47,576 bases of DNA from assembly GCA_042218115.1 (NCBI GenBank), contig JBDGRJ010000040.1, positions 1 through 47,576 of the forward strand, written 5' to 3'. This document shows, in pieces, positions 1,055 through 31,608 of this stretch. The DNA comes from Minisyncoccia bacterium. GTDB lineage: Bacteria; Patescibacteriota; Patescibacteriia; Magasanikbacterales; UBA922. Position numbers and translations under genes: made by a program. Numbering within the stretch: position 1 is the stretch's first letter; every line of letters starts with the position of its first letter. The notes beneath the pieces were generated by a model. The model was not told the origin of the DNA. It ran no database searches and saw nothing but the letters and a program-made list of their open reading frames with translations.

Positions 1055-1154
1055 CTAGTGAATTATTGTAAGAGAAATGATTTTGTAATTTTTAGTTTGG
1101 TGTTAAACGTAGAAAAAAATCTTTATTAAAATAACTTAAATTCATTAAAATTTT

Positions 1155-1502
1155 ATGCCACAAAAAAAACAGACGCAATATGATCCCGAGGAGAACCTAA
1201 GAACTTTTATTTTAAGAATACTAGAAGAATCAGGTCTTAAAGAGTTAACTGAAGAACAAAAGGAGGAGTTTTTGCCTAAATTAGTTGCGCGTGCTGAATA
1301 TAAAATAGGACAAGCGTTAATTCCAAAACTGTCCGAAGGGGCGGCCGAAGAGTTTACTGAACTACAAGAACAAGAAGAGACCGATCCCCAAGTTTGGAAA
1401 GATTTTTGGGAGGAAAATGTTGAGGATTATGACCAAGTAGTAACCGAAGCTTTGGACGATTTTGCAGAAGAGTGTAAAGAGGTATTATCTAAATACGAAT
1501 AA
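1155..1502 (+). CDS. Hypothetical acidic protein (115 aa)
   Basis: Clean ORF on the same strand as the giant gene, ending 10 nt upstream of it. No family recognised. Confidence 0.55.
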   Translation: MPQKKQTQYDPEENLRTFILRILEESGLKELTEEQKEEFLPKLVARAEYKIGQALIPKLSEGAAEEFTELQEQEETDPQVWKDFWEENVEDYDQVVTEALDDFAEECKEVLSKYE

Positions 1503-1511
1503 TATAAGGTT

Positions 1512-4500
1512 ATGTATTCTAAACCCGATATTTATTTCAAAACAACTGGAGGGCCTGATGATGAATATAAAGTCCCTACCCCTGAGAGTCTAGAAGGAGG
1601 AGAGGAGGCTGAAAAAGATGCTGAATCAGGTGGAAATATAGAAGACAGACAAGCAGAAGCATTAGAGGATGCCAGATTGGAGATAGAAGAGGTAAGAAAT
1701 GTTTTAGAAGATTTAAGAGGTACTGCAGAAGAGTCTGAAAGAGTAGGAGAAGAAGAGTTGGATAAATTAGATGATTTAAAAGATGCTGCTGAGGGGGTAA
1801 GAGATAGAGCGGAGCTGGCACAGAGATTCCAAGAAGCAGATGCAGAAGAAAGACGTGAAATTTATAAAAAAATATACCAGAATGTGAAAGATCATTCTAA
1901 AATAAGAAATGAGCTAGGACAAACAGTTGAGTTATTGATACCACCGCCTGAAACCCTAGGATCAAATGAAGTGTCTGATAAGACTGAAAAAGATGAGTGG
2001 GAGGGCGTATCTGGAGAAACTACAGTAGAGACCTTTGATGAAGAAGAGACAATAAAGAGATTAGCAACCTTGTATGATGAAAAAATAGACCAAGAAGAAA
2101 GAGTTGAAGAATTATCGGATCAAAAACAAGAAAAAACTAAAGATAAAAAAGAATTAAATTTTAAAGCCGAGAAACAGAAATTAAAACAACTCGAAGGAAA
2201 AATAGAAGGATTGATAAATGAACTTACAGAACATACCGATAAAAGTACAGATGAAGTGGCAGAGGAAATTGCCGAATATAGTGATGAACTAGAAGATACA
2301 AGTGAGACAGAAGAAGATGAGAAGAGTGCAGAAGAAAGAGATAAAACCCTAGATTTGCCTAGAAGTATAATGAGAGAAGCTATGGTAAATCAGGGAGAAA
2401 GTGAGAAAATAGTAGATGCTTTGGTAGAAGGAAACCCAGACCAAGCTAGAAATATTGTAGAGAATTTATTTGATAATCTCTCGCAAGACCAGCTACAAAG
2501 ATTGGAAGAAGCGCTTGAGGGTCAAGGATGGGAACTAGAAGAATTCCTTGAGAAGTGGGAAGATGAACTTGCGGGTGATGTTGTAGAGATGTATCAACAA
2601 GAAATTAACGACAGGGTCCAAAAAAAGGTACAAGAACAGATGACATGGACGGATAAACTGAGGGCCGGATGGAAAAGCGCAGCTAAAAAGGTGGGCGCTT
2701 ATGGGGGTTCAATGTTTGCAGGAGCTTCCGCTGGTGCTGCGGCAGGTAGCTTATTAGGCCCTATCGGTAGTATAGTTGGTGGAGTAGTAGGTGCTAGATT
2801 TGCGAAAGGTGGTGTCGACACTGTGGCAGAAAAGAGCGGTGTGTTAGAAGAAGGAGAAGATACGAAAAAAGAGAGAGAAGAGTCTGAGATGTATTTAGCT
2901 GAAGTAAAGGGATATTCCGATGAAGCAAAAGAGGAAATAAAATCCGAGATGAAAATAGATATAGACGAGGAAAGGCAAAGAATATTAGCCGATACTATAA
3001 ACCAAAAATTAAGTAAAGCTCCGGAGAAGACAAGACTGGATGAGTGGAAAAATAAGATATTAGATGTCAGAGCAGAAGAGTTGGAAGAGGAAGACCTAGA
3101 AGAAGAGGCAATAAATAAAAAATTAGAAGTTTTGGAACACAAACTAGATAAGCTCATAGAAGCAGAACTTAGAGATGGCAAAACTCTCGTAGAAGCAGCT
3201 GTGGAAAACGGAGCTAACAAACAAGCGGTAGAAGTTCTGGCAGAAGAAAATGCAGGTGATTTACCGGAAGATTTAAAAGATTCAGATGTAGAAAAACACC
3301 TGCAAAGGTTTGGGGTACCCACTACTGCAGGAGCTAGTGCAATGGCTGCAGCTGCGGCTGGTGGACCTGTTGCTGGATATATGGCTTATGGTGGAGGCAA
3401 AGGAGGAGAGCTGGGTATGAGATACGGAGAAAAATTTGATAAAGATAAAGTATCGGAAGAAATGGCAGAGAGAATTGAGGCGGTGCAGAGTGAGGTGATG
3501 GAAAGAATGGACAGATACAATACAGAGGAAGAAATAAAAAGCACCTCTACCGAGAAGTTATCAGATGACCTTGCAAAAATAAAAGGGGCTTTGGATAAAG
3601 GCATTATAGATCAAGAGGTAGTAGATGCTTTTGATACAATAGGAGAAGAAAGGGGGGCAGGCATTAAAGAAAGAGTCCAACAACTGGAAAAAGAGATAAA
3701 TAGAGAATTAAACGGCCGAAAACTAGAAGATTTAGATGATCATTTTAAACAAATAGAAGCAAAAAGTGAAATAAGTGGACAAGAAGATGTAGAATATATT
3801 TTACCTGACGAAGAAAAGAAAAAAAGAAAATATTTAGGCGCAGTAATGGGTGCTGCAGCGGGTGTCGTAGCTGGTAATTTGTTGGGTGATTATGGAGGTT
3901 CATCAGAGCAACCTACAGAACAAGAAAAAGTACCTGAAGAAGCTCAAAGGACTATTGGTGCAGAAGATGTTCACGAAGGCGGAGCTTCATATCCGGGATC
4001 AGGGCCTGCTTCAGCAAAAGGAGAAGTACCTGCTGTGGATCTGGAAGCAGCAGAAGAAACAAGCGAAATTAGAATGGATCCGACTGAGATTGAAGGGGCG
4101 CCTCCTATTGATGTAGCATGGGAGGTTAAGGACCCTAACGGTGTAATAGACGGAATAAAGGGGATTGTAGAAGGTAAAATAAGTCTTGAAGATATGGATG
4201 CTGATACTGTAACTGAGTTTTTAGAAAACAATGATGATTTAAGAGATCAGTATGTTGAAGGATTAAACGAAATATCTGAGAAACATAATATTGAGATAGA
4301 AGATATGAAGGGAGTCGGAGTTGAGGACGGGGATTTTGTTCATAGAGAAATGCAAACACAAGAAATTATGGATGTTTTTGCATCGGTTAAAAGCAATCCG
4401 GAGGAATATCCTGAATTTACTAAGTTTCTTGAAGAGTTAGATAGCCAAACTAGTGGAAGTCCGACCACTCAACCTTCCGCAACAGCAGAACCCACCCCGG

Positions 4501-5603
4501 GCAGTTCAACAGGTAGTGAAGCATCAACTGCGGGATCTACTGGAGGTGGAGCCGAAACTACTGCGCAGGCAGATGAAACAGCGGCTGAACCTACTACGGA
4601 AGATGGAGCGGGCTACACCTCTCCTGAAGGTCCTGCAAGTATGCCGTCAGAAGTTCCTGAAGATACAGTAGAGCCGAGTGGAGGAGATACGGGGGAAGCT
4701 GCGGGGTACACCTCCACGGAAGGGACGGCTTCAATGCCTGAAGAAATTACGGGAAGTGAAGCAGGTGAGAGTGGCAAAGAGTTGGCAGAAGAAGCAGAAA
4801 GGTCCGCTGAAGGGGGGGCTGAAACAGAAGAAGCTGTATTAGAAGAAGAGGGGGTCCCAAAAGAGGCACAATCCTCTGCTCAAGAAGGAGATACAAGGGG
4901 AGTTACTGAGGGTCCACCTCCGTCAGTAGACGAGTCTGCTATTGATGTAGTCGGAGATGACAAGGCCGCAGAAGCAGGAGGAGAAACCATAGAGGCCGAT
5001 AGTGAAACAACAGAAGCTGGAACAGAATCGGCAAGTGAATCAGGAGGTGGTGGTGTTAGTTCAGCTTCAGAAGAAAATTTAGCTGCTGAGGGAGAAGCAG
5101 GAGAAGCTGAAGACGGAGATAGTTCTGAAGCAGAAGAAGCCGAAGCTGCTGCAGAAACAACAAAGGAGATAACCAAAGAGATAGGCGGCAGAGAGGTTAA
5201 TTTTATCGTCGAAGACGGCAAACTCTCTATGATTGATGACCCTGATCATGGTCAAATTTTTCTTGACCAGGAAGGTGATATTAATATCTCTACTTTAATG
5301 GCAGAAGAGACAGGTAAGCCAGCAATGGAAGACTTGGATTGGCTTGAAAACTACAATGAAATATATGAAGAAAGGGGTCTTTCAGGACCGGGGGGAGCTC
5401 AAGAATTTCAGTCTTTTGCTACTAAAGTAAATACTTTGAAAGAAGCATATCACGCTTTAATTGAAAGCAATTTAGACGTAGATGCTTCAGATATTACTCA
5501 AAAGGTGAATTCTGCTTTAGAGTCCCATTTGAAACAGGCTGAGGAAATGTATGGATTAGAAGTTGACAGAAGTGAATTTATACCCGAGGAGCCCAAAACT
5601 TAA
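1512..5603 (+). CDS. Giant hyper-acidic protein (1363 aa) with coiled-coil-like stretches, three Gly/Ala-rich hydrophobic segments and a low-complexity T/S/E/A/G tail
   Basis: Uninterrupted 4.1-kb ORF. The antisense ORFs are S/L/F-rich mirror images of GAA/GAG runs. Hydrophobic Gly-zipper-like segments lie at about nt 2691-2815, 3311-3410 and 3832-3900. No family recognised. Confidence 0.8.
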   Translation: MYSKPDIYFKTTGGPDDEYKVPTPESLEGGEEAEKDAESGGNIEDRQAEALEDARLEIEEVRNVLEDLRGTAEESERVGEEELDKLDDLKDAAEGVRDRAELAQRFQEADAEERREIYKKIYQNVKDHSKIRNELGQTVELLIPPPETLGSNEVSDKTEKDEWEGVSGETTVETFDEEETIKRLATLYDEKIDQEERVEELSDQKQEKTKDKKELNFKAEKQKLKQLEGKIEGLINELTEHTDKSTDEVAEEIAEYSDELEDTSETEEDEKSAEERDKTLDLPRSIMREAMVNQGESEKIVDALVEGNPDQARNIVENLFDNLSQDQLQRLEEALEGQGWELEEFLEKWEDELAGDVVEMYQQEINDRVQKKVQEQMTWTDKLRAGWKSAAKKVGAYGGSMFAGASAGAAAGSLLGPIGSIVGGVVGARFAKGGVDTVAEKSGVLEEGEDTKKEREESEMYLAEVKGYSDEAKEEIKSEMKIDIDEERQRILADTINQKLSKAPEKTRLDEWKNKILDVRAEELEEEDLEEEAINKKLEVLEHKLDKLIEAELRDGKTLVEAAVENGANKQAVEVLAEENAGDLPEDLKDSDVEKHLQRFGVPTTAGASAMAAAAAGGPVAGYMAYGGGKGGELGMRYGEKFDKDKVSEEMAERIEAVQSEVMERMDRYNTEEEIKSTSTEKLSDDLAKIKGALDKGIIDQEVVDAFDTIGEERGAGIKERVQQLEKEINRELNGRKLEDLDDHFKQIEAKSEISGQEDVEYILPDEEKKKRKYLGAVMGAAAGVVAGNLLGDYGGSSEQPTEQEKVPEEAQRTIGAEDVHEGGASYPGSGPASAKGEVPAVDLEAAEETSEIRMDPTEIEGAPPIDVAWEVKDPNGVIDGIKGIVEGKISLEDMDADTVTEFLENNDDLRDQYVEGLNEISEKHNIEIEDMKGVGVEDGDFVHREMQTQEIMDVFASVKSNPEEYPEFTKFLEELDSQTSGSPTTQPSATAEPTPGSSTGSEASTAGSTGGGAETTAQADETAAEPTTEDGAGYTSPEGPASMPSEVPEDTVEPSGGDTGEAAGYTSTEGTASMPEEITGSEAGESGKELAEEAERSAEGGAETEEAVLEEEGVPKEAQSSAQEGDTRGVTEGPPPSVDESAIDVVGDDKAAEAGGETIEADSETTEAGTESASESGGGGVSSASEENLAAEGEAGEAEDGDSSEAEEAEAAAETTKEITKEIGGREVNFIVEDGKLSMIDDPDHGQIFLDQEGDINISTLMAEETGKPAMEDLDWLENYNEIYEERGLSGPGGAQEFQSFATKVNTLKEAYHALIESNLDVDASDITQKVNSALESHLKQAEEMYGLEVDRSEFIPEEPKT

Positions 5604-5629
5604 TTTTTGCTAATATTTTATATCTTAAT

Positions 5630-5658
5630 TTGTAGTCACATATTTTTTTTGCTATAAA
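5630..5658 (+). promoter_or_regulatory. Candidate sigma70 promoter (TTGTAG-17 nt-TATAAA, with TG 1 nt upstream of the -10)
   Basis: Hexamers at 5630-5635 and 5653-5658 with a 17-nt spacer, counted by hand. It sits directly upstream of the anomalous 5.7-6.1 kb segment. Confidence 0.35.
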
Positions 5659-5714
5659 TTAATCACTGTTCATTCACTTTTCCTCGTACTTCTAAAAAAC
5701 CACGGAGGGTTAAA

Positions 5715-6038
5715 GTGCTTTACCCTAATAACCACGGATTGGTTAAAGCTGCTTTTTTTCTTCCCGGACCTCCTTTTGTTACGGCCAGTTATGGTTGGGC
5801 GGATGATCCGGATAGATTGGCATGTCTATTGCATTGGAGGCTTGAGATCATGGGCTTTTCTTATTTCCGTTATAAAAGAAAAGGCACCCCCACTTTCTTT
5901 TTCGACTTTGAAAGAGGTCCTGTCACTGAGGGGGTAGTTGAATTAACTAGAGCTCTTGTAAAAGAGCTCGGCTTTCCAAAGTATGATAAGACTAGAGTAA
6001 CTACAATAAGGAGACTGGAGGCACAGCTTGAAAGGTAA
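5715..6038 (+). CDS. Hypothetical small protein (107 aa, GTG start); coding status uncertain
   Basis: The ORF is preceded by GGAGG 6 nt upstream of the GTG, which is rare in this window. It has its own candidate promoter and a downstream stem-loop (6050-6076). Its amino-acid composition (W/P/G/F/R rich) and GC are unlike the neighbouring genes. No family recognised; an RNA gene cannot be excluded. Confidence 0.35.
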   Translation: MLYPNNHGLVKAAFFLPGPPFVTASYGWADDPDRLACLLHWRLEIMGFSYFRYKRKGTPTFFFDFERGPVTEGVVELTRALVKELGFPKYDKTRVTTIRRLEAQLER

Positions 6039-6100
6039 ACTGGGGATTGGGACCCGCCGGAACGCCCGTCGGGTCCACTCACTTTTATAAAAGATTTAAC

Positions 6101-7228
6101 ATGCCCAATAAGGTTGCACTCGATGCCCGCATGATGAGCTCAAGCTTCGGCATCGGTAGATATATACAACAACTAGTCACACATCTAGAACAAATCTCTC
6201 CAGAAGATATGGAGTTTTTTTTATTTATGAGAGAGAAAAATTGGGACGAGTTTAAACCTGTCCGAGAAAATTTTCATAAAATAAAGACGAATATAGATTG
6301 GTATGGGGTGTCTGAACAACTAAGGATGCCAAAAGTTATTGAAAGAGTTAATCCTGATTTAGTTCATTTTCCTCACTGGAATGTCCCCTTTTTTTATAGT
6401 GGTAATTTTGTGGTGACGATTCATGATCTGATAATGTTTCATTTTCCCAGGCCGGAAGCCACTACTCACGGAAAGATCAAGTACTGGGTTAAAGATAAAA
6501 TTCATAGATTCGTAGTAACAGAAGCGATTGAGAACTCGGAACATATCATCACCCCTTCGAAATTTACCAAAAAAGATATATTGGATAATTTTGATATAGA
6601 AAATGATAAGCTGACGGTTACCTATGAAGCTCCCTTTTTTGGTGAGTCTGAACCGCTGGATTTTTCTCAGCTGCAAACTAAGATTAATATCGAGCAGCCC
6701 TATGTATTTTATGTCGGCTCAGCTTATCCGCATAAAAATTTAAATAACTTAGTTAAGGCATGGAAGAGATTTAAACAAGCAGATAATAATGATTTCAGCT
6801 TGATCCTAGCAGGAAAGGAAGATTATTTTTATGATAGGCTAACTAACTCTAATCTCTTTAAGAGTACACCAGACGTAGAGCATATTGGACAGGTGTCCGA
6901 TGAGCAACTAAAATCTTTATACAAAAATGCAGAGCTTTTTGTCTTTCCTAGTCTGTATGAGGGTTTTGGGCTTCCTCCACTAGAGTCACTTCAATTACAA
7001 ACACCGGTATTAGCTTCGGAAACCAGTTCGGTCCCCGAGGTTCTGGGTGAGGCTGGTATATATACCGACACTGAAGATGTAGAGCAATTTTCTCAAGATA
7101 TACACGCAGCCCTAGAAAAGAAAGAAATGAGACAAGAGTCCTTGCAGCGAGCAGAAGATCAACTGGATCAATACTCATGGAAAAAATTAGCTAAAAAAAC
7201 CTTGAGGGTATATAAAAATAATAGTTAA
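6101..7228 (+). CDS. Glycosyltransferase, GT4 (group 1) family
   Basis: C-terminal E-x7-E region FPSLYEGFGLPPLESL and the typical GT-B layout. I prefer the ATG at 6101 (MPNKVALDARM...) over the listed 6047 start, which would run through an intergenic GC-rich stem-loop. Confidence 0.85.
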   Translation: MPNKVALDARMMSSSFGIGRYIQQLVTHLEQISPEDMEFFLFMREKNWDEFKPVRENFHKIKTNIDWYGVSEQLRMPKVIERVNPDLVHFPHWNVPFFYSGNFVVTIHDLIMFHFPRPEATTHGKIKYWVKDKIHRFVVTEAIENSEHIITPSKFTKKDILDNFDIENDKLTVTYEAPFFGESEPLDFSQLQTKINIEQPYVFYVGSAYPHKNLNNLVKAWKRFKQADNNDFSLILAGKEDYFYDRLTNSNLFKSTPDVEHIGQVSDEQLKSLYKNAELFVFPSLYEGFGLPPLESLQLQTPVLASETSSVPEVLGEAGIYTDTEDVEQFSQDIHAALEKKEMRQESLQRAEDQLDQYSWKKLAKKTLRVYKNNS

Positions 7229-7288
7229 TCCCCGTTGTAATCTTCCTTGGGAAATATGGTACAATAATAAGCAGTAAAATATTTCCCA

Positions 7289-9835
7289 ATGGAGTCAGAA
7301 TCTAAAACTGAGCAAAATCAAAAAAATAGCTCCAAACCAGTCTTTGTAAAGGCTCAAGATACTGAGGCTTCACCTCACATTGTAGATCTAAGAGAGGACG
7401 ATCCTGACTTGGAAGATGTTGGCAGCTTCAGAGAAAAAATGAATCAGGCTAGAGAGAGAAAGACGGTCGATTTTGCAGAGATGGTAAAACAGGCTAATGA
7501 AGACTCAAACCACAAGGAGGAGAATATTAAAATAGATCATGATAACCCTGCTAGCCACCAGCTGAGCCAAGAGACCCGGGAGTTGTCCCAGCAGAAAAAA
7601 GCGGTAAATATTAAGCTGGGACAAGCTAGTTCGGATGACTCTTCGGGTTTGCAATCTATCGCAGCTAAGCTGCCGAGCTCACAGATCAAGGCTGCTATTA
7701 GCGGGGCGGTTAATGCTATAGCTGAAGGCTTTTTCAGTACTGCTTCTGAGGCTGGGCCCGGCTCGGTCGGGTCGAGTTTGAGCGGTGCTGTAGAGAGACA
7801 AAAAGAAGCTCTAAAGACTTTTTGGGCTGATATGACACGACGAAGAGCTTTTGCTACTGTATTATCTCTTATAGCTGTATTATTGCTTCCGTTCCCGGTT
7901 GCTGGCTATTACAATAAAGTAAAACAAGACAGTCGTAGTATAGTGGAAAAATCAACACACGGCTTTTCCGCTTTGAGCAATTCTTCGGCAGCGCTATTTT
8001 CTTCTAATATTAATCAAGCAAAATATAATCTCGCTAGTGCACTGACTGCTTTCGATGAAGCGCAGTCTATGCTCAATAAGGACTATAAAACCGCTATCGA
8101 GATAGCTTCGCTGATTCCTATTATAGGAGACGATATTACGGCTAGAGAAAATCTACTTTCAGCAGGTCACCATTTAGCTTTAGGGAATACCTATTTAGTA
8201 AAGGGTGTATCTGATGCCAAAAATAAAACTGAACTTCCACTCACTGAACGCCTGCAGATAATTGAAAATCACCTCCAGAGCGCTATTCCTCAATATGAGC
8301 AGGCTCTGAGATCATTAGCGGTAGTTTCGAAAGATGAGGTTCCTAAAAAATATGCTGAAGTAAGTCAGGAGTTCAAGGTTTTGTTTGCTGCTATGATAGA
8401 TGATATGCAAGACCTGGTTTCGTTGATCGATACGGCACAGATGATATTCGGCCATCAAAGCTATAAGAAATATTTAGTAGTATTTCAAAATAGCAATGAG
8501 CTAAGACCGCTAGGAGGGTTTGCTGGCAGTTATGCGGTAGTGGAGGTGCAGAAAGGAAAGGTAAGCTGGGATATCCCCTCCGGTGGCAGTTATGATCTTC
8601 AAGGTCAGATGAATTTAAGTCTCAAACCACCTGTTCCTCTGCAGATGGTAAATAGTAAATGGGAGTTTCAAGATGCAAACTATTTTTCTCATCTCCCAGC
8701 CTCGGCTAAAGTAATGGAGGATATGTATACTGAAGCTCGGGGCTCGACTGTAGACGGTGTGATTACTGTAAACTCAGATGTGTTGAAGCGAGTATTGGAT
8801 GTAACCGGTCCGATAAACTTAAGTCAATTTGATGAGCCTATCACTAAAGAAAATGTGCTCAGAAAAGTTCAGAAGTCCGAAGAGGAGGTAAAGAAAAACA
8901 CCGACAAAAAGCCCAAAGCCATACTATCCCCGATAGCAGAAAGACTAATGGATAAGATAAAATCAGGTAAAAATACTGATCTGCTTCATCTGGCGGTTGA
9001 AGCCTATCAGGCCCTGAACCAGAAACAGATTCAGGTATATATGGAGGATGATCAGACTCAAGAAACTCTGCGCTCGTATGGTTGGACCGGAGAAATCTTG
9101 CCCGCCGCACCAAAGCAAGACTATCTGCATCTGGTCCACTCTAATCTGCAAGGACAAAAATCTAATGCTAAGATAAAAGAGAATCTAGAATTAAAAACAA
9201 AAATAAAATCAGACGGTACAGTGATAAATAAGCTCATAATAAATAGAAAACACACGGCGGACCCGGATGATCCTTTGTATGGCTCTACTAATTTTTCACA
9301 TGTACAAGCATTTGTTCCACAAGGAAGTAAGCTTGTAGCTGCAGAAGGTTTTGAGTTTCCGCCCGAGCGTGCATTCCGTGCACCTATCGACAATGCTAAA
9401 ACTCACCCTGTATTGAAGAAGCTAGCTAAAAATGAGCGGTATGATTCGGATACTGGTACCAGGATCAGTCGACAGTTTGGAAAAACAGTGTTTGGCCACT
9501 GGATCATCACTAAGCCCGGCCAATCCAGCAAAGCGTATATTAAATACAAGCTTCCCTTCAAAGTTAAAAGTAAAAAAGAGTTAACCAGCAACTTGCAACG
9601 TTGGAAGCAGGCAATCCTATCAAAGGATAGACAGGACGCTATATCTTACAGTATGTTTTTGCAGAAGCAATCCGGAACAAACTATTCTTTTAATCATGAA
9701 GTAAAACTAAGCTCGAAGTGGCGTCCGTTGTGGAGGTCAAGCGAAGAGGTTCAGTTTGGGGACGGGAAGGTGATGTATAAAAAACCACTTACATCCGATA
9801 CTAAGTACGGATTTTTACTAGAAAGTAGCAATTAA
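7289..9835 (+). CDS. DUF4012 domain-containing membrane protein
   Basis: Disordered N-terminus, one TM (AFATVLSLIAVLLLPFPVAGYY), then the motif NSNELRPLGGFAGSYAVVEV. I recall this motif as characteristic of DUF4012 proteins. Confidence 0.75.
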   Translation: MESESKTEQNQKNSSKPVFVKAQDTEASPHIVDLREDDPDLEDVGSFREKMNQARERKTVDFAEMVKQANEDSNHKEENIKIDHDNPASHQLSQETRELSQQKKAVNIKLGQASSDDSSGLQSIAAKLPSSQIKAAISGAVNAIAEGFFSTASEAGPGSVGSSLSGAVERQKEALKTFWADMTRRRAFATVLSLIAVLLLPFPVAGYYNKVKQDSRSIVEKSTHGFSALSNSSAALFSSNINQAKYNLASALTAFDEAQSMLNKDYKTAIEIASLIPIIGDDITARENLLSAGHHLALGNTYLVKGVSDAKNKTELPLTERLQIIENHLQSAIPQYEQALRSLAVVSKDEVPKKYAEVSQEFKVLFAAMIDDMQDLVSLIDTAQMIFGHQSYKKYLVVFQNSNELRPLGGFAGSYAVVEVQKGKVSWDIPSGGSYDLQGQMNLSLKPPVPLQMVNSKWEFQDANYFSHLPASAKVMEDMYTEARGSTVDGVITVNSDVLKRVLDVTGPINLSQFDEPITKENVLRKVQKSEEEVKKNTDKKPKAILSPIAERLMDKIKSGKNTDLLHLAVEAYQALNQKQIQVYMEDDQTQETLRSYGWTGEILPAAPKQDYLHLVHSNLQGQKSNAKIKENLELKTKIKSDGTVINKLIINRKHTADPDDPLYGSTNFSHVQAFVPQGSKLVAAEGFEFPPERAFRAPIDNAKTHPVLKKLAKNERYDSDTGTRISRQFGKTVFGHWIITKPGQSSKAYIKYKLPFKVKSKKELTSNLQRWKQAILSKDRQDAISYSMFLQKQSGTNYSFNHEVKLSSKWRPLWRSSEEVQFGDGKVMYKKPLTSDTKYGFLLESSN

Positions 9836-24747: not shown

Positions 24748-24784
24748 TTTGACCCTCTAAGAAAGACGTAGTACAATACATACA

Positions 24785-24966
24785 CCTGTCCTACAGGAGG
24801 AGAAAACCATGTCCGACACCCAATAAATAGGGGGCTTATATCGGCTTGGCCCGGCGGTTCGTCCGTAGGTCAAGTTCTGCGGCCACCCACTATACCATTC
24901 AGGGACATTAGGTTAATCCCCTGAGGGCAGGTATAAAGCGGCTCGCAGATTGCTGCGAGCTGTTTT
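24785..24966 (+). promoter_or_regulatory. Structured GC-rich leader: 5-codon mini-ORF with a strong SD, alternative antiterminator/terminator helices, terminator at 24941-24966
   Basis: AGGAGG (24795-24800) is followed 8 nt later by ATG TCC GAC ACC CAA TAA (24809-24826). The terminator is GCTCGCAG-ATTG-CTGCGAGC plus TGTTTT. Nucleotides 24876-24884 (TCTGCGGCC) can instead pair with 24940-24949, giving 9 bp with one bulge. The class is not identified. Confidence 0.4.
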
Positions 24967-24997: not shown

Positions 24998-25441
24998 ATG
25001 AAAAAGCGATCTCATTATCCGTCATTGATGGTTGTTACCAGCAAAGAGGAGGTTAAGTGGTATAAAGTATTTAGAGATAGAGTAGAAAAGCTAGAGGAGA
25101 AGAATACTGAAGAGTGGGATCTATCGGACAAAGAAGGTCATTTTGAAAAAAGAGGTCACGGAGAAGCTTTGGGCACTGCCGGAGTGGATATAGAGAATGC
25201 TGAAGAGAGAAGAATTATTGAAAAACACACGAAAAAAGTAGCTGAGAAAACCAAAGAGCTTTGGGATAGTAATTTTAAACATCTTATGATAGCAGTACCC
25301 GAATATCTTAAAAATGTAGTTGAGAACAGAATAGAAAAAGCTCTAAATAGACAAGAGTATAAGTACATAAAAGGAAACTTTACTCATGCAGATAAAGATA
25401 AGCTATTAGAGCTGGCACAGGATAGCTTGAAGGTGGTATAG
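24998..25441 (+). CDS. Hypothetical protein resembling the host-attachment / bacterial eRF1-like (baeRF) family
   Basis: The 147-aa layout (N-terminal beta region, a central G-rich loop, then ...KKVAEKTKELWDSNFKHLMIAVPEYLKNVVENRIEKAL...KGNFTHADKDKLLE) matches my recollection of the PF10116-type pattern. This is not verified. Confidence 0.45.
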   Translation: MKKRSHYPSLMVVTSKEEVKWYKVFRDRVEKLEEKNTEEWDLSDKEGHFEKRGHGEALGTAGVDIENAEERRIIEKHTKKVAEKTKELWDSNFKHLMIAVPEYLKNVVENRIEKALNRQEYKYIKGNFTHADKDKLLELAQDSLKVV

Positions 25442-25449
25442 AGCAAGAT

Positions 25450-25478
25450 TTGACAGGGTAAGCAAATATAGCTAATAT
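25450..25478 (+). promoter_or_regulatory. Candidate sigma70 promoter (TTGACA-17 nt-TAATAT) of module 1
   Basis: Hexamers at 25450-25455 and 25473-25478. The leader ORF ATG is about 17 nt from the predicted transcription start site. Confidence 0.5.
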
Positions 25479-25501
25479 ATACTTAAGTTCAAATAAATAT
25501 C

Positions 25502-25609
25502 ATGCATAAGAGCTTCCGCTTTGAAAATTCAATGCTCGTGAGTATTGTGCTTATTATTATCCTCGCCAGCCGAGGCGGAGCTCTTCTAGTACCTGAACGA
25601 GCCAGGTAA
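25502..25609 (+). CDS. Leader peptide ORF 1 (35 aa, Ile/Val/Leu-rich)
   Basis: MHKSFRFENSMLVSIVLIIILASRGGALLVPERAR, translated by hand. 9 of 11 consecutive residues (LVSIVLIIILA) are branched-chain. It overlaps attenuator helices 1 and 2. Confidence 0.45.
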   Translation: MHKSFRFENSMLVSIVLIIILASRGGALLVPERAR

Positions 25610-25632
25610 CACGAACCAAAAAACAAAGAAGA

Positions 25633-25657
25633 GCCCGCCGGAGACGGCGGGCTTTTT
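25633..25657 (+). terminator. Rho-independent terminator (attenuator) of module 1
   Basis: GCCCGCCG-GAGA-CGGCGGGC followed by TTTTT. It lies between the promoter/leader and the ATP-grasp gene. Confidence 0.75.
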
Positions 25658-25873
25658 AAATTTAACAGTCTTTACAAAAGAAACAAAAAATGATAAGTTC
25701 ATATCATTTCTCATCCGGATTAGCTTTTTAAAGGGTTAACCTGGCTGAGAAAGCCATAGCTCTTTAGATCTTTACATATCGGTGTGTAAACCACTCTTGC
25801 CATCCGAGAAGCTGTTTGGCTTTTGGGGTGGCAAGAGTGTGTTAATTGAATTCTCACGGAAGAGGAAAATACG

Positions 25874-27070
25874 ATGAGAGTCTTGATTCATTCGATGATG
25901 ATGTATGTCCACCTCTTGCAGGGGGAGGTGGACGAGCTGAAGAATTATTCGGGGCGCGCCCTGCTCGCCCCGCGGTCTTACGGTGCCGTCGTCTACGACA
26001 CCGAGACTGCTCGCAGGTATGCCAGGTACCTGCGAAATCTTGAGCTTGGGCCGGAGAAGGTTTGGTTCGTGGAGCAGAAGGGCAAGACCCTATTTCACGC
26101 GCTGAACCAATCCGGCACCCTCCAGAAGGTCCTGAAAGCCGCCGACTCGATCGCCCCGTTCGTCTCGTGGGAGAAGACGAACCAATTCCGCGAGGAATGG
26201 GGGCTCGATCATGGTCGGTGGTACGGCCAGGACCGTGAGGACCACGTAAGTCTGGAGAACAAGGCGCAACTTCGCCGACGTTTTCCGGATTCGTGGTTCT
26301 CAGAATACGAGATCTTCCCGGCTGGAGATATCAGCGGAATCCAGGAGTACGGATTTCGCTTGATGGCAAAGTACGGGAAGATCCTAGTCCGGCATCCGAA
26401 GAAGGCATCGGGTGTCGGGCTCCGATTCCTGGAGGACTCGGAGGAGCTCCACTCCTCCAAGCTCATCGAGTTTCTCCAAGGCTTTGCCGGTGAGGAGTTG
26501 CTCGTCGAGCAGTTCTTCTCCGGGGCCGAGGAGTACTCGATAACCTGGGAAAGGGGGCTTGGTGGAGAGCCCCGACAGCTCTACTGGTCGGGACAATTCA
26601 TCAAGTCCGGCGTGCATCAGGGCAACTTGATTGCCTCGCCGGAGACCCTCCTCCCCGAGGAGGCCCAGGGAGCGATCGAGGAGATCGAGGCCGCCACCCG
26701 CGAGATCGTGTCAAACCACGACTCGCCGGGCCGGTACGGTTTTGACCTTCTCATCCGACCCAACGGAGAGTGGGTCGTAATCGAGTGTAACTGCCGATAT
26801 GGGGGGAGCGCCTATCCCGCCTTCGTTCGAGAGAACGTAGGGGAGGATCGTTGTGTCATCATGCACAACGTCTATCCCGAAACGGCGGAGAGCTTCGAGG
26901 AGGTCCACGAAGCCTTCGAGGAGCTCGGGCTCGACTACGACCCCTCGAGCCGAGAGGGTGCGCTCGTTGGCAACCCCTTCGCCCTTCCGGCGAAATGTGC
27001 CGCGGTGATCGTGGCCAATAAGCCGGACGAGGTGAAAGGGATGCTCAAGCGCATCCAAAATAATCTCTAA
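25874..27070 (+). CDS. ATP-grasp superfamily ligase, high-GC paralog (398 aa)
   Basis: ILVRHPKKASGVG (Lys plus Gly-rich loop), LVEQF and the Mg-binding-like ECNCRYGG. It aligns over its full length with the 28150..29337 product. GC is about 57-68% in two lines I counted. Confidence 0.8.
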   Translation: MRVLIHSMMMYVHLLQGEVDELKNYSGRALLAPRSYGAVVYDTETARRYARYLRNLELGPEKVWFVEQKGKTLFHALNQSGTLQKVLKAADSIAPFVSWEKTNQFREEWGLDHGRWYGQDREDHVSLENKAQLRRRFPDSWFSEYEIFPAGDISGIQEYGFRLMAKYGKILVRHPKKASGVGLRFLEDSEELHSSKLIEFLQGFAGEELLVEQFFSGAEEYSITWERGLGGEPRQLYWSGQFIKSGVHQGNLIASPETLLPEEAQGAIEEIEAATREIVSNHDSPGRYGFDLLIRPNGEWVVIECNCRYGGSAYPAFVRENVGEDRCVIMHNVYPETAESFEEVHEAFEELGLDYDPSSREGALVGNPFALPAKCAAVIVANKPDEVKGMLKRIQNNL

Positions 27071-27178: not shown

Positions 27179-27910
27179 ATGGAGACTAATGAAAGAATTT
27201 TGGTTGTTCAGTTTCGTACTGACGATTCTGAAGACCATGAGCAAAAATGTTTTCATGAAGACTACAATGATCTTAGTGTAGATCTTCACTTTGAGAGTGC
27301 TATTAGTGGGGATTTAGAAAATTGTCGTTTAGATGATTATCACGGGGTAATTTTAGGAGGAAGTGGCGAGTATTATTTGACTGAAGGTGCAGGTAAGGGT
27401 AGCTGGAGGCAGGATGCATTTGAGTTTATAAATAAAACCTTAAATAAAGAGAAGCCTACTTTGGGTATTTGCTTTGGGTCTCAGCTGCTAGCTCTACACC
27501 AGGGTGGCAAGCTTGTCAGTGATGAAAAGTATCACGAATCAGGATCTTACCAAGTAGATTTAACAAAAGAGGCAGAAGATTGTGATATTTTTTCCAACAT
27601 GGATCCATCGTTTAATGCTACTATAGCTCACCAGGATACTCACATAGATATGCCTGATAATATCGTTCCTTTAGCAAGCTCGGAGAGAGTCCCCTGTCAG
27701 GCCTTCAAGGTGAAAGATAAGCCAGCTTGGGGTACCCTATTCCACCCGGAGCTAAATGCTGACAGGCTTGATTATAGACTTCGGCTCTACCCGTCTTACG
27801 TAGATAATGAGCATCTGATTGATGAGATTATACAGGACTTTGATGACACATCCTATTCTATCAATATATTACATCACTTCTATCATTATATCGCAGAAAA
27901 TATTGATTAA
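27179..27910 (+). CDS. Class I glutamine amidotransferase-like protein (COG0518/GuaA-type, peptidase C26-like fold)
   Basis: Nucleophile elbow LGICFGSQLLA and the His-Glu pair in LFHPELN. Confidence 0.85.
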   Translation: METNERILVVQFRTDDSEDHEQKCFHEDYNDLSVDLHFESAISGDLENCRLDDYHGVILGGSGEYYLTEGAGKGSWRQDAFEFINKTLNKEKPTLGICFGSQLLALHQGGKLVSDEKYHESGSYQVDLTKEAEDCDIFSNMDPSFNATIAHQDTHIDMPDNIVPLASSERVPCQAFKVKDKPAWGTLFHPELNADRLDYRLRLYPSYVDNEHLIDEIIQDFDDTSYSINILHHFYHYIAENID

Positions 27911-27927
27911 GATTTTATGAATGTGAA

Positions 27928-27956
27928 CTTGACTACACCTCGTCGCTGTTCTATAA
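27928..27956 (+). promoter_or_regulatory. Candidate sigma70 promoter (TTGACT-17 nt-TATAAT) of module 2
   Basis: Hexamers at 27928-27933 and 27951-27956. The leader ORF ATG is about 15 nt from the predicted transcription start site. Confidence 0.5.
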
Positions 27957-27977
27957 TATTTCTGTAATTATAGCATT

Positions 27978-28064
27978 TATGAATAAATTCAATTTCCTAA
28001 ATAACCAGTTTCTATTTCTGTTTATGATGCCCGCTTGGTCGCGGCGGCGCTCCTGTAATGGCTA
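27978..28064 (+). CDS. Leader peptide ORF 2 (28 aa, Phe/Leu-rich, ends in SRRRSCNG)
   Basis: MNKFNFLNNQFLFLFMMPAWSRRRSCNG, translated by hand, with 5 Phe and 3 Leu in residues 4-15. It shares the M-x-K-(x)-F-x-F-x-N start, a hydrophobic core and an SR motif with leader ORF 1. Confidence 0.45.
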
Positions 28065-28088
28065 GTTGAATTTTTTCAGCCAGTAAAG

Positions 28089-28112
28089 AGCCCGCCGGAG
28101 ACGGCGGGCTTT
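28089..28112 (+). terminator. Rho-independent terminator (attenuator) of module 2
   Basis: The same GCCCGCCG-GAGA-CGGCGGGC hairpin followed by TTTT. It is 37 nt upstream of the ATP-grasp ATG. Confidence 0.75.
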
Positions 28113-28149
28113 TGCTATTAATTTTAGTTACTTAATTATTGCTTACAAC

Positions 28150-29337
28150 ATGAAGACCCACATACATGATTTGAGCTTGTTTGTAACTTTTCTCAAAGGG
28201 TACATTTCCGGGGTAGAGGATTATGTAGCCAGGGCACTCTTATCTCCAGAGGGGGCCGTGGTCTTTGATGATTATGACGTGGATAATTATGTAGAATATC
28301 TGCGAGATATAAATGTAGGTCCCAAGAAAGTTTGGTCGGTAGAGTCTACCGGGGATACTCTATTTCACGCTTTAGATCAAAGTAATCAGCTGGATGAGGT
28401 ACTTGAGCAAAGTGATGTAATAGTGCCGTTCGTATCTTGGGAATATACCAATAAATTTAAAGACAAATGGGGCCTGAAAGACAGTCAGTGGAAGACTCAA
28501 CCCCCCGAAGTTCACCAAAAGCTAGAAAATAAGACTCACTTAAGAGAGATAGGAAAAGAGGAGTGGTTTACAGACTATACTACCTGTAGAGACAAAGAGT
28601 TAGTGGAGGTGGGTCAAGAAATGCTCAGAGAGTACGAGAATATTTTAGTACGTCATCCTAAAAAAGCTAGTGGTGTGGGCGCAGAACAGATAGGAGACCC
28701 GAATTATTTTCAGTCCCAAGACTTTGATCAGTTTGTAGAAGAACATTCTGATGATAACCACTTTTTAGTTGAGGAGTTTTATGAGAAAGGGGAGGAGTTT
28801 AGCATTATCTGGGATGTATCAGCAGAGGGTGAGCCCAAACTTCAATTTTGGACCAGGCAATATATTAATGATTGTGTACATCAGGGTAATATGGTGGCCG
28901 ATGTTGAAGTTGTATTCCCTTGGGAGGCTGAAACAACTATTAGTGAGATAAAAGATGCTACTCGTAGAATAATTGAGGAGTACCCATACTTTGGGCGTAT
29001 AGGTTTTGATTTGAAGGTTTCGCCTTCCGGTGAGTGGAAAATATTGGAGTGTAATTGCAGATACGGTGGGTCTTCTTATCCAGGGTTTACTAGAGAGCAA
29101 GTGGGGGAGGATCGTTGTGTGTTAATGCATAACATTCACCCTAGGCTAGATAATTTTCAGCAGGTACACCAAGCTTTTGTGGAGGCAGATGTAGATTACT
29201 CAAAGGAAGATAGAATAGGCGCTTTTGTAGCCAACCCATTTTGCCTGCCGGACAAGTGTGCTGCTATGATCGTAGCAGAAAACCCCGATGAGGCGGAGCA
29301 GATTCTATCTACTATCTTGGATAAAGTCGATAAATAA
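28150..29337 (+). CDS. ATP-grasp superfamily ligase, low-GC paralog (395 aa)
   Basis: ILVRHPKKASGVG, LVEEF, ECNCRYGGSSYPGF and GEDRCVLMHN. It is collinear with the 25874..27070 product. Confidence 0.8.
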   Translation: MKTHIHDLSLFVTFLKGYISGVEDYVARALLSPEGAVVFDDYDVDNYVEYLRDINVGPKKVWSVESTGDTLFHALDQSNQLDEVLEQSDVIVPFVSWEYTNKFKDKWGLKDSQWKTQPPEVHQKLENKTHLREIGKEEWFTDYTTCRDKELVEVGQEMLREYENILVRHPKKASGVGAEQIGDPNYFQSQDFDQFVEEHSDDNHFLVEEFYEKGEEFSIIWDVSAEGEPKLQFWTRQYINDCVHQGNMVADVEVVFPWEAETTISEIKDATRRIIEEYPYFGRIGFDLKVSPSGEWKILECNCRYGGSSYPGFTREQVGEDRCVLMHNIHPRLDNFQQVHQAFVEADVDYSKEDRIGAFVANPFCLPDKCAAMIVAENPDEAEQILSTILDKVDK

Positions 29338-29344
29338 TTTAACT

Positions 29345-30082
29345 GTGGGCTCGGATATTAATATAACTGTTATACAATACAGAACCGATGAGTCCAGGCT
29401 CCATGAGCAAAGATGTTTTCAAGACCAGTTTTCTAAGCTAGGAGTAGAGTTTGAATTTATAAATGCAATCGAGGAGGATTTGAGCACTGATGTGATAGAG
29501 GATACACACGGGTTAATTTTAGGGGGAAGTACTGAGTTTTCTTTGTCAAAGCTAGATTGGGGTGACCATACTTGGATAGATACAAGTTTTAATATTTTAA
29601 ACGAGTTAACCAACAGGGAGCTTCCTACTTTGGGGATTTGCTTTGGTTATCACTTGATTGCTCTACATCAGGGTGGTAAAATCACCAATGAAGATAAATA
29701 TCACCAAAGTGGATCTTTTCAGTTAAGTCTATCTCAGCATAAGCATAAATGTGATATTTTCTCTAATCTTCCAGAAGAGTTTTACGCTCAGCTAGGACAT
29801 GTAGACACCCCTGTTGATTTGCCCGAAAACGGCTTGTCATTAGCCTCTTCTAATGAAGTACCTCATCAGGCTTTCAAGGTAGAAGATAGGCCCGTATGGG
29901 GGGTGTTATTTCATCCTGAGCTTAACAAACAAAGAGCCAAAGAGAGATTGGCTATGTTTCTCGATTGTGAGGTAGGCAGCGAAGAGTTCAATCAGGAGGT
30001 GAAAAAACTGGAGAGTAGCCCTGAATCCCAACGGGTTATTCACGAATTTATTAAGTTTACTAATAGAAAGTGTCATGAATAA
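29345..30082 (+). CDS. Class I glutamine amidotransferase-like protein, paralog 2
   Basis: LGICFGYHLIA and LFHPELN. I prefer the GTG at 29345 (VGSDINITVIQYRTDE...) because it aligns with the start of paralog 1 and avoids overlap with the ATP-grasp gene. Confidence 0.8.
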   Translation: MGSDINITVIQYRTDESRLHEQRCFQDQFSKLGVEFEFINAIEEDLSTDVIEDTHGLILGGSTEFSLSKLDWGDHTWIDTSFNILNELTNRELPTLGICFGYHLIALHQGGKITNEDKYHQSGSFQLSLSQHKHKCDIFSNLPEEFYAQLGHVDTPVDLPENGLSLASSNEVPHQAFKVEDRPVWGVLFHPELNKQRAKERLAMFLDCEVGSEEFNQEVKKLESSPESQRVIHEFIKFTNRKCHE

Positions 30083-31540: not shown

Positions 31541-31560
31541 ATGAGTAGTAATGAAAAAAC

Positions 31561-31588
31561 AAAAACCCCGCCAGTTGGCGGGGTTTTT
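31561..31588. terminator. Bidirectional rho-independent terminator between convergent genes
   Basis: AAAAA-CCCCGCC-AGTT-GGCGGGG-TTTTT. Confidence 0.8.
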
Positions 31589-31608
31589 GTAGTTGAGAGA
31601 CTCTTTGC

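Follow-up and report, generated by a model that had tools for sequence, protein, structure and literature searches.

What is a 35-codon open reading frame (ORF), dense in isoleucine, valine and leucine codons and followed by a strong terminator, doing in front of an ATP-grasp gene in a Minisyncoccia bacterium of the Patescibacteriota? The ORF lies in the intergenic stretch 25442-25873 of contig JBDGRJ010000040.1 (assembly GCA_042218115.1), between a gene for a 147-amino-acid protein of unassigned function (24998-25441) and the ATP-grasp gene. The contig stretch of 47,576 nucleotides that was analysed is called the window in the following, and all parts of the element as well as the genes it precedes are on its forward strand. 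Judging from the nucleotide sequence and its relatives, we consider it likely that the element is a ribosome-mediated leader-peptide transcription attenuator, which senses the supply of charged tRNAs for isoleucine and valine and perhaps also for leucine. An earlier note on this DNA had proposed an attenuator with alternative 1:2, 2:3 and 3:4 helices and a leader rich in branched-chain residues. This proposal was upheld by comparative tests, namely RNAalifold predictions, covariation, the open frames of related leaders and the presence of such a leader in front of an ilv operon.

The element starts with a sigma-70-like promoter-like site (25450-25478; TTGACA at 25450-25455, 17 nucleotides, TAATAT at 25473-25478; 10 of 12 consensus matches), a feature additional to those listed in the earlier note. 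Here and below, promoter calls are matches to the consensus and denote putative starts predicted by sequence only. The −10 hexamer is separated by 24 nucleotides from the start of the leader ORF (25502-25609), which encodes MHKSFRFENSMLVSIVLIIILASRGGALLVPERAR and has no Shine-Dalgarno (SD) motif. Its codons 12-21 (25535-25564) read L V S I V L I I I L, so that isoleucine, valine or leucine occupies nine of these ten consecutive positions, with isoleucine mainly encoded by ATT. The branched-chain-rich mini-ORF described before is therefore real. Stretches with at least nine of these three residues in 11 positions occur in 6 of the 1251 stop-to-stop segments of the window; the run is therefore rare yet by itself indecisive, and it is the comparative data presented below which, at the level of sequence, lift it above chance.

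Three segments around and within the ORF can pair in alternative ways. Region 1 (AAGAGC-T-TCCGCT, 25508-25520, within which the string AAGAGCTTCCGC covers 25508-25519) pairs with region 2 as a predicted anti-antiterminator. Region 2 (GGCGG-A-GCTCTTCT, 25574-25587) represents the 5′ strand of the putative antiterminator, and region 3 (AGAAGAGC-CCGCC, 25627-25639, containing the string GAAGAGCCCGCC at 25628-25639) is the partner either of region 2 in the antiterminator or of region 4 in the terminator. The intrinsic terminator (25629-25657) consists of a stem (25633-25640/25645-25652), a GAGA loop and a run of TTTTT (25653-25657); as had been suggested, region 3 also forms its 5′ arm. All complementarities previously noted between these regions were found in the letters at the places given for them. 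The coordinates of the longer region-2 string GGCGGAGCTCTTC (25574-25586) were correct as well, and only those of the shorter string GCGGAGCTCTT, which occupies 25575-25585, had been one base off. A small hairpin of the form CTCG-N5-CGAG (25562-25574) directly abuts region 2 and may be a pause hairpin. It is 87% paired in 13 leaders of the family described below, and its sequence is conserved in these 13 leaders with no informative covariation. A role of this hairpin as anti-antiterminator was rejected, as it has one base in common with region 2 and does not covary.

The 1:2 helix has a predicted free energy of −18.9 kcal/mol, which was equalled by 3 of 300 dinucleotide shuffles, and the 2:3 helix of 13 bp reaches −24.8 kcal/mol, which was equalled by none of 300. 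With −22.8 kcal/mol the terminator hairpin is strong, and the energy of the 2:3 helix is comparable to it. The minimum-energy fold of the whole leader holds the 1:2 helix together with the terminator (−62.1 kcal/mol, z = −5.9), and none of 200 shuffles was as stable. The folding comparison proposed in the earlier note is in line with an attenuator.

To place the element in a comparative context, we used the contigs of all known homologues of the ATP-grasp protein. Its family is extremely rare and comprises 10 clusters among 5.8 billion proteins; a profile search for further homologues returned the same 10 proteins and added none, and an exhaustive HMMER search revealed a large gap to the next relatives (699 versus 183 bits). 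The comparison loci were the window, L124, L001, L003, L004 and L126, with L135 being an extended version of L004. Because these loci were gathered via the enzyme and not via the leader, they represent an unbiased sample for tests of the leader. They are syntenic, with genes for UvrD, NDK and the 147-amino-acid protein followed by the leader-bearing modules and then by genes for a rhodanese, PBP, L28, M50, S12, S7 and EF-G. The closest named relative of the window organism is a Ca. Magasanikbacteria metagenome-assembled genome, and the window sequence was found in a salt-lake metagenome.

Across about six related Patescibacteria genomes, these loci contain 14 distinct leaders of a shared design, all of them situated just upstream of genes and in the same orientation. 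The design consists of a promoter, an ORF of 19-35 codons, the sequence CTCG-N5-CGAGGCGG(N)GCT, a stop codon, a spacer of 19-34 nucleotides and a terminator (AGCCCGCC-loop-GGCGGGCTTTTT). When both strands of all loci were searched with a relaxed pattern, the design turned up only at these 14 places and only on the coding strand. The leader frame is open in all 14 cases, while the other frames contain one to five stops in all but one case. In 11 of 13 leaders, a promoter-like site with 9-11 of 12 consensus matches precedes the start codon by 10-28 nucleotides, and in the other two the −35 element was cut off by the extract. In module 2 of the window (see below) and in most relatives, a spacer of only 18-47 nucleotides without a promoter separates the terminator from the next gene, and therefore expression of that gene must pass the terminator in most members. 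Based on their sequences, we regard these leaders as a predicted and previously undescribed family in a small clade of salt-lake Patescibacteria.

The pairing of region 2 with region 3 is conserved throughout this family. In every instance, the 5′ arm of the terminator pairs best with the GGCGG(N)GCT motif, which is located within the ORF at positions +59 to +95 relative to the start codon. The energies of the 2:3 helices (−14.6 to −25.6 kcal/mol) are comparable to those of the terminators (−13.8 to −23.2 kcal/mol) and were equalled by 0 or 1 of 300 shuffles in 12 of 13 leaders and by 11 of 300 in the remaining one; for the leader in front of the ilv operon the count was 0 of 300. In an alignment of 13 sequences, 85% of the 2:3 helix is paired compared to 40-53% when the partner was slid by one to three columns, and the terminator helix 3:4 is 94% paired. 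Covariation of the 2:3 helix comprises six pairs, with 15 cells changed on both sides, and none of 500 shuffles matched this score. The terminator itself does not explain several of the covarying positions, as these are found immediately beyond its G+C core. Furthermore, the conserved region-2 motif CGAGGCGGNGCT is translated in two different frames; ten leaders read it as R-G-G-A and the other four as S/P-R-R-x (RGGA versus SRRxSC, including SRRRSC). This indicates a constraint on the RNA and not on the peptide. The 1:2 helix and the terminator were both predicted de novo by RNAalifold for the six leaders of the Ile/Val/Leu-rich class defined below, with compensatory changes at two pairs of the 1:2 helix. 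Upstream of region 2, the family alignment revealed no conservation beyond codon composition.

This codon composition divides the leaders into two classes, one rich in isoleucine, valine and leucine (class 1) and one rich in phenylalanine, leucine and methionine (class 2), and the window carries one of each. Every type-A ATP-grasp gene, the type found in module 1, has an Ile/Val/Leu-rich leader upstream. Taken together, the leaders before type-A genes (window, L124, L001, L003 and L004) contain 18 Ile, 16 Val, 16 Leu, 5 Phe and 2 Met among 106 residues; the leaders before type-B ATP-grasp or glutamine amidotransferase (GATase) genes contain 1 Ile, 5 Val, 28 Leu, 25 Phe and 7 Met among 136 residues. 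For Ile plus Val against Phe, the two groups differ with p = 8e-9 (Fisher's exact test), a value which is somewhat inflated by close relatives. At the orthologous loci, which had been suggested as a place to look for covariation and conserved codon bias, both were thus found: the 2:3 helix covaries, all 14 leaders have an open ORF and the codon bias is class-specific.

The strongest single argument that the window element senses isoleucine and valine comes from L135. Here, a class-1 leader with the motif and the terminator of the family (MQQSSRQHNKIVSIIEVVIIKLVTRGGALAMNS, 847-1043) ends 18 nucleotides before an ilvE-ilvC-ilvB-ilvA-ilvD-ridA operon (1057-8232). Its 2:3 helix (−25.6 kcal/mol) and its 1:2 helix (−18.5 kcal/mol) were equalled by 0 and 1 of 300 shuffles, respectively. 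An Ile/Val-rich leader of the family is thus predicted from its position to control bona fide genes of isoleucine and valine biosynthesis, and the operon indicates that some members of the clade keep this pathway. No leu genes and no ilvN were seen in the L135 stretch that was fetched. A second class-1 leader of the same locus (VVVQVVNLV) ends 28 nucleotides before a gene for malic enzyme, which is followed by a type-A ATP-grasp and a GATase gene. The earlier note had not expected such an element in front of a non-biosynthetic ATP-grasp gene. This expectation can now be reversed, as the leader is taken to place the ATP-grasp/GATase pair in an Ile/Val regulon.

How would the switch operate? Transcription would start about 16 nucleotides before the 35-codon ORF. 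With plentiful Ile-, Val- and Leu-tRNAs, the translating ribosome would pass region 2 (25574-25587), which would either be occluded or pair again with region 1 in the wake of the ribosome. Region 3 would then be free for region 4, the terminator would form and RNA polymerase would stop at about 25657. If these tRNAs were scarce, the ribosome would stall within codons 12-20 and region 1 would be unable to hold region 2. The latter would pair with region 3 as soon as this had been made, the terminator would not form and transcription would proceed towards the type-A ATP-grasp and GATase genes. We infer translation of the ORF, stalling, termination and read-through as well as a role of the enzyme pair in the supply of isoleucine and valine, and control of the type-A ATP-grasp gene by the leader would follow the same scheme.

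The geometry of the leaders fits this scheme in part. In a masking simulation of the window leader, a ribosome with its P site on any of codons 1-20 left 12-13 bp of the 2:3 helix before region 4 was made, i.e. the first nine of the ten codons of the run permit this helix; codon 21 left 9 bp and codons 23-31 left none. Once region 4 existed in the simulation, the terminator was always the thermodynamic winner. The decision must therefore be kinetic, as in classical attenuators. Within the family, 75-90% of the regulatory codons are placed such that a ribosome stalled on them stays short of region 2. Once it has arrived at the final sense codon, the ribosome covers at least part of region 2 in 12 of 14 leaders. 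The stop codon is found within −19 to +21 nucleotides of the end of region 2 in all family leaders.

Several observations weigh against an attenuator of this kind or against its control of the type-A gene. In the window leader and its L124 orthologue, the stop codon is located 21 nucleotides past region 2, 4 nucleotides short of coverage. A ribosome at the stop codon is therefore clear of region 2, and repression would need either re-formation of the 1:2 helix or appropriate timing. The 1:2 helix is non-significant in five of seven class-2 leaders, where a short local hairpin beside region 2 may replace it, and the covariation of the 2:3 helix is non-significant within the six sequences of class 1. 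Several of the sequences, such as those of the window and L124, are close relatives, and the counts given above are accordingly not independent. None of the leader ORFs contains an SD motif. This absence is normal here, since SD-like motifs (GGAG, GAGG or AGGA within 20 nucleotides of the start) precede only 2 of 34 window genes, and translation initiation in the window organism seems to be largely SD-independent. The sequencing runs that contain the window sequence are exclusively DNA metagenomes from salt lakes, and no RNA runs were found among them. Moreover, we know of no link between the ATP-grasp/GATase enzymes and isoleucine or valine metabolism.

The spacer of module 1 also belongs to these points. 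Its terminator is separated from the start of the type-A ATP-grasp gene by 217 nucleotides, and a possible second promoter (TTTACA-17-TAAGTT, 25671-25699) directly follows the terminator, with equivalents in L124 (TTTACA-17-TAAATT) and L001 (TTTACA-17-TAAGTT). Further downstream, the spacer contains a 21-bp hairpin (25787-25844, ACTCTTGCC…GGCAAGAGT), for which seven compensatory pairs were detected among five genomes. A helix of TTCTCA and TGAGAG (25851-25880) then encloses the start codon of the ATP-grasp gene together with the purine-rich GGAAGAGGA, an SD-like motif of which the window contains only one other example. The hairpin and helix (25787-25880) gave no Rfam match. Both may represent a separate translational or transcriptional control. 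In view of the long spacer with its second promoter and hairpin, expression of the type-A ATP-grasp gene may be in part, or even for the most part, independent of the leader.

The composition of the leaders and the fold of the downstream enzyme could also be explained if the small ORF were a stand-alone gene for a hydrophobic peptide, either a precursor or substrate of the ATP-grasp ligase or a membrane or toxin-like peptide, and if the hairpin were an ordinary leaky terminator that sets the stoichiometry of peptide and enzyme. We consider this improbable. It would agree with the solved folds nearest to the ATP-grasp protein, which are PGM1-type ligases, whose substrates are ribosomal peptides, and then BesA and L-amino-acid ligases. 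It would also account for the covariation of peptide class and ATP-grasp type, which resembles that of precursor/enzyme pairs, for the basic N-terminus preceding the hydrophobic stretch, and for the fact that each ORF has its own promoter and terminator. On the other hand, conservation applies to a nucleotide motif read in two frames and not to the C-terminal part of the peptide. The leaders of the window and L124 are 84% identical in DNA and 72% in protein, with mostly non-synonymous changes that keep the hydrophobicity. The hydrophobic stretches of 10-13 residues are too short for a membrane helix. Furthermore, the coding region maintains its complementarity to the 5′ arm of the terminator through compensatory changes, a feature dispensable for a plain terminator. 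The family also has leaders in front of genes whose products do not modify peptides, namely an ilv operon and the genes for a malic enzyme and a GCS2-type ligase. Two specific versions were rejected in their own right. A graspetide or PGM1-type precursor should show a peptide-level motif, but none was found, and the Thr/Ser plus Asp/Glu or Lys core of graspetides is missing; a type I toxin or small membrane peptide, judged by length with no search made for an antisense RNA, would need a hydrophobic stretch of about 18-20 residues. A chance ORF without regulatory function, situated next to the terminator that belongs to the upstream gene (24998-25441), seems extremely unlikely. The frequency of similar runs in the window (6 of 1251 segments) means that the run alone could be accidental, but all comparative evidence is opposed and the element has its own promoter.

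If, instead, translation played no part, the switch would be set by a protein, a metabolite or a tRNA, or the transcript of 170 nucleotides would act in trans as a small RNA, and the ORF would be incidental. The discrete unit from promoter to terminator with its very stable fold (z = −5.9), the missing SD motif of the ORF and the conserved CTCG-N5-CGAG hairpin, to which no role is assigned, would be compatible with such a riboregulator. However, the frame is open in all 14 leaders despite AT-rich and stop-prone DNA, the promoter is followed by the start codon at a short and constant interval, and the stop codon always falls into the −19 to +21 range relative to region 2. Upstream of region 2 only codon composition is conserved, which is unlike an aptamer, and no Rfam family, T-box or riboswitch was detected at threshold. 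We therefore regard a translation-independent regulator as very unlikely. Specifically, a T-box or riboswitch was rejected because no conserved aptamer-like region exists upstream of region 2, and attenuation of the pyrBI type, in which the ribosome blocks the terminator, was rejected because the ORF ends 19-34 nucleotides before the 5′ arm of the terminator. A leader-peptide attenuator might also respond to general translation capacity or to another stress, for example compounds that act on the ribosome or the targeting of a hydrophobic nascent chain to the membrane. The leaders, being hydrophobic with a basic N-terminus, indeed resemble signal-anchor sequences, and no role in amino-acid synthesis has been established for the regulated enzymes. 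Nevertheless, such a general sensor appears highly improbable given that the leaders fall into two sharply distinct codon classes, Ile/Val and Phe, which go with one gene type each, and given the position of the Ile/Val class directly before ilvECBAD.

A leader-peptide attenuator that senses branched-chain aminoacyl-tRNAs has well-known counterparts. The attenuators of the enterobacterial ilvGMEDA (ilvL), ilvBN (ivbL) and leu (leuL) operons are alike in having a mini-ORF of about 28-35 codons close to the promoter that contains a dense Ile/Val/Leu run, mutually exclusive 1:2, 2:3 and 3:4 helices with an intrinsic terminator, and control of branched-chain genes, the latter here predicted for the relative L135. 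In contrast, the window element shows no detectable sequence homology to them, and belongs to another phylum, one that does not use SD motifs. The genes behind it are an orphan ATP-grasp/GATase pair and not ilv genes, and its stop codon follows region 2 and is not placed between regions 1 and 2. The ilvL peptide (…VVVIIIPPCGAALGRGKA) resembles …LIIILASRGGALL of the window; this likeness is probably convergence, because the G+C-rich region 2 is translated. The module 2 leader and its class use the same logic as the pheA (RF01859) and pheST (pheM) leaders with Phe and Leu codons, but the near-match to Phe_leader is mainly driven by the terminator and the target genes differ. A small ORF beside an ATP-grasp ligase with PGM1-like fold is also known from PGM1/PGM2 of the pheganomycin system. 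Here, however, the peptide is unconserved, the terminator/antiterminator switch is conserved, and leaders are also found before ilv, malic-enzyme and GCS2 genes. Outside the Proteobacteria, the same principle applies, as in L135, to Gram-positive ilv leaders, including the ilvB leader peptide of Actinobacteria (PMC1262725), the ilvB-II upstream ORF of Corynebacterium (PMC10272879), the Leu-rich attenuator peptide of S. aureus (PMC5794164) and the ilv leader control of Listeria (PMC5864092). Sequences, structures and phyla differ, and for none of these leaders is control of ATP-grasp/GATase genes reported.

Database searches returned no described family for the element. At the gathering threshold, Rfam annotated two tRNAs and nothing else in the whole window. 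With E-values up to 10, the region 25400-25900 produced sub-threshold matches only, which were driven by the terminator. The best scores on the forward strand compared to the gathering thresholds were 23.1/55 bits for Phe_leader (RF01859), 19.8/55 for Thr_leader (RF00506) and 15.7/49 for His_leader (RF00514), and the window leader is thus a member neither of these families nor of Trp_leader (RF00513). A scan of genome contigs with a G+C-rich DNA pattern, which was a poor choice of pattern, led to chance matches in high-GC genomes and to none below 50% GC. In viral contigs, a pattern scan gave six chance matches in high-GC contigs; in metagenome contigs, a stricter pattern gave 0 matches and the ATP-grasp profile 0 confirmed relatives. 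A literature search on leader peptides and attenuators in Patescibacteria or the Candidate Phyla Radiation (CPR) found no report.

The window contains two modules, each composed of a leader, an ATP-grasp gene and a gene similar to class-I GATases, and the proteins of the two modules are 46% (ATP-grasp) and 44% (GATase) identical. In module 1, the presumed regulated gene encodes the type-A ATP-grasp protein, which is similar to L-amino-acid or peptide ligases (25874-27070), and is followed by the gene for its GATase-like partner (27179-27910) with visible GICFG and HPE catalytic motifs. The leader unit of module 2 (27929-28113) comprises a promoter-like site (27929-27957; TTGACT-17-TATAAT, 11 of 12 matches), a 28-codon ORF of the Phe/Leu/Met-rich class with five Phe (MNKFNFLNNQFLFLFMMPAWSRRRSCNG, 27979-28065), region 2 (GCGGCGGCGCTCC, 28041-28053; 2:3 helix −19.3 kcal/mol, equalled by 0 of 300 shuffles) and a terminator (28086-28113) that is an identical 28-nucleotide copy of the module 1 terminator. 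The distance of 37 nucleotides from this terminator to the start of the type-B ATP-grasp gene (28150-29337) is too short for a further promoter. A second GATase-like gene (29288-30082) encodes the partner of the type-B protein. The architecture of the modules varies among relatives, with the order GATase-ATP-grasp-GATase or two tandem GATases (L004 9548-12262, L126 3-2785 and L003 7290-10829), and in L126 a leader is located between the ATP-grasp and the GATase gene.

An AlphaFold model of the type-B ATP-grasp protein reached a mean predicted local distance difference test (pLDDT) score of 86. The closest solved folds of the ATP-grasp model are PGM1-type peptide ligases, the gamma-glutamyl ligase BesA and the Asp-Met ligase LdmS/SAOUHSC_02373, and by sequence the protein weakly matches the ATP-grasp domains of carbamoyl-phosphate synthetase. 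The GATase partner contains the Cys and His-Pro-Glu motifs; it is nearest to GuaA-type subunits and also matches gamma-glutamyl peptidases. In L003, a Phe/Ser-rich leader (MKKATNRQNFSFFSLFCTE, with the run FSFFSLF; 4477-4594) precedes a gene for a GCS2/YbdK-type carboxylate-amine ligase (4700-5491). The terminator of this third L003 leader is divergent (GAGCACCGC…GCGGTGCTC), and region 2 has co-varied to fit (AGCGGTTGCT). The GCS2 ligase, the BesA-like fold and the C26-like GATases together hint at gamma-glutamyl chemistry in the regulon.

The type-A ATP-grasp gene also differs from its surroundings in composition. It alone is G+C-rich, with 59% GC and 76% GC at third codon positions (GC3) in the window and 54-60% GC and 60-76% GC3 in three relatives (L124 2925-4121, L003 6001-7170 and L004 6001-7215), compared to a GC3 of 16-40% for its neighbours and 37-41% GC for the genomes. 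Its codon usage is shifted to ATC for isoleucine (15 of 18), GTC for valine, CTN for leucine and CGN for arginine, while the leader mostly uses ATT and GTG/GTA. The orthologue in L001 does not share the anomaly. A recent horizontal transfer is an unlikely cause of the roughly 60% G+C of this gene, because orthologues in four diverged genomes have the anomaly, too. It may be speculated that the recoding reflects selection for translation when Ile- and Val-tRNAs are scarce.

Two further elements of the window were observed apart from the modules. Between ndk and the gene for the 147-amino-acid protein, a G+C-rich and apparently structured intergenic stretch of about 180 nucleotides (24785-24965) comes with a promoter-like site of its own (24749-24777) as well as a terminator-like hairpin (24941-24960), with equivalent hairpins in L001 (2681-2700) and L124 (1987-2006). 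It had no Rfam match even at E-values up to 1 and may represent an undescribed small RNA or leader. After the PBP-family gene, a perfect 14-bp palindromic hairpin (ACAAAAACCCCGCCA…TGGCGGGGTTTTTGT, 31559-31590) with A- and T-runs on either side looks like a bidirectional terminator.

Leader-peptide attenuation is textbook knowledge in Proteobacteria and known in some Gram-positives, and Patescibacteria are generally regarded as amino-acid auxotrophs. New in the case presented here would be the phylum of occurrence, the at least two specificity classes and a functional label on an orphan enzyme pair. A reduced lineage without SD motifs appears to couple transcription and translation tightly enough for attenuation. 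The codon content of a leader would serve as a built-in label of what the downstream genes respond to, so that the orphan ATP-grasp and GATase proteins become candidates for the acquisition of Ile/Val and Phe/Leu, and the same logic could be extended to other CPR genes. More tentatively, and with considerable doubt on our side, the leaders might define an amino-acid-starvation regulon that includes two paralogous modules of an ATP-grasp and a class-I amidotransferase or gamma-glutamyl-hydrolase-like protein as well as, in one genome, a GCS2-type ligase. If the codon classes report the class of substrate, the type-A module would serve the supply of Ile/Val and the type-B module that of Phe/Leu/Met. 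Such a regulon would imply an undescribed route, for example via dipeptide or gamma-glutamyl intermediates, and the GC3 recoding of the type-A gene (ATC, GTC) could keep the responder translated while the sensor, rich in ATT and GTG/GTA, stalls.

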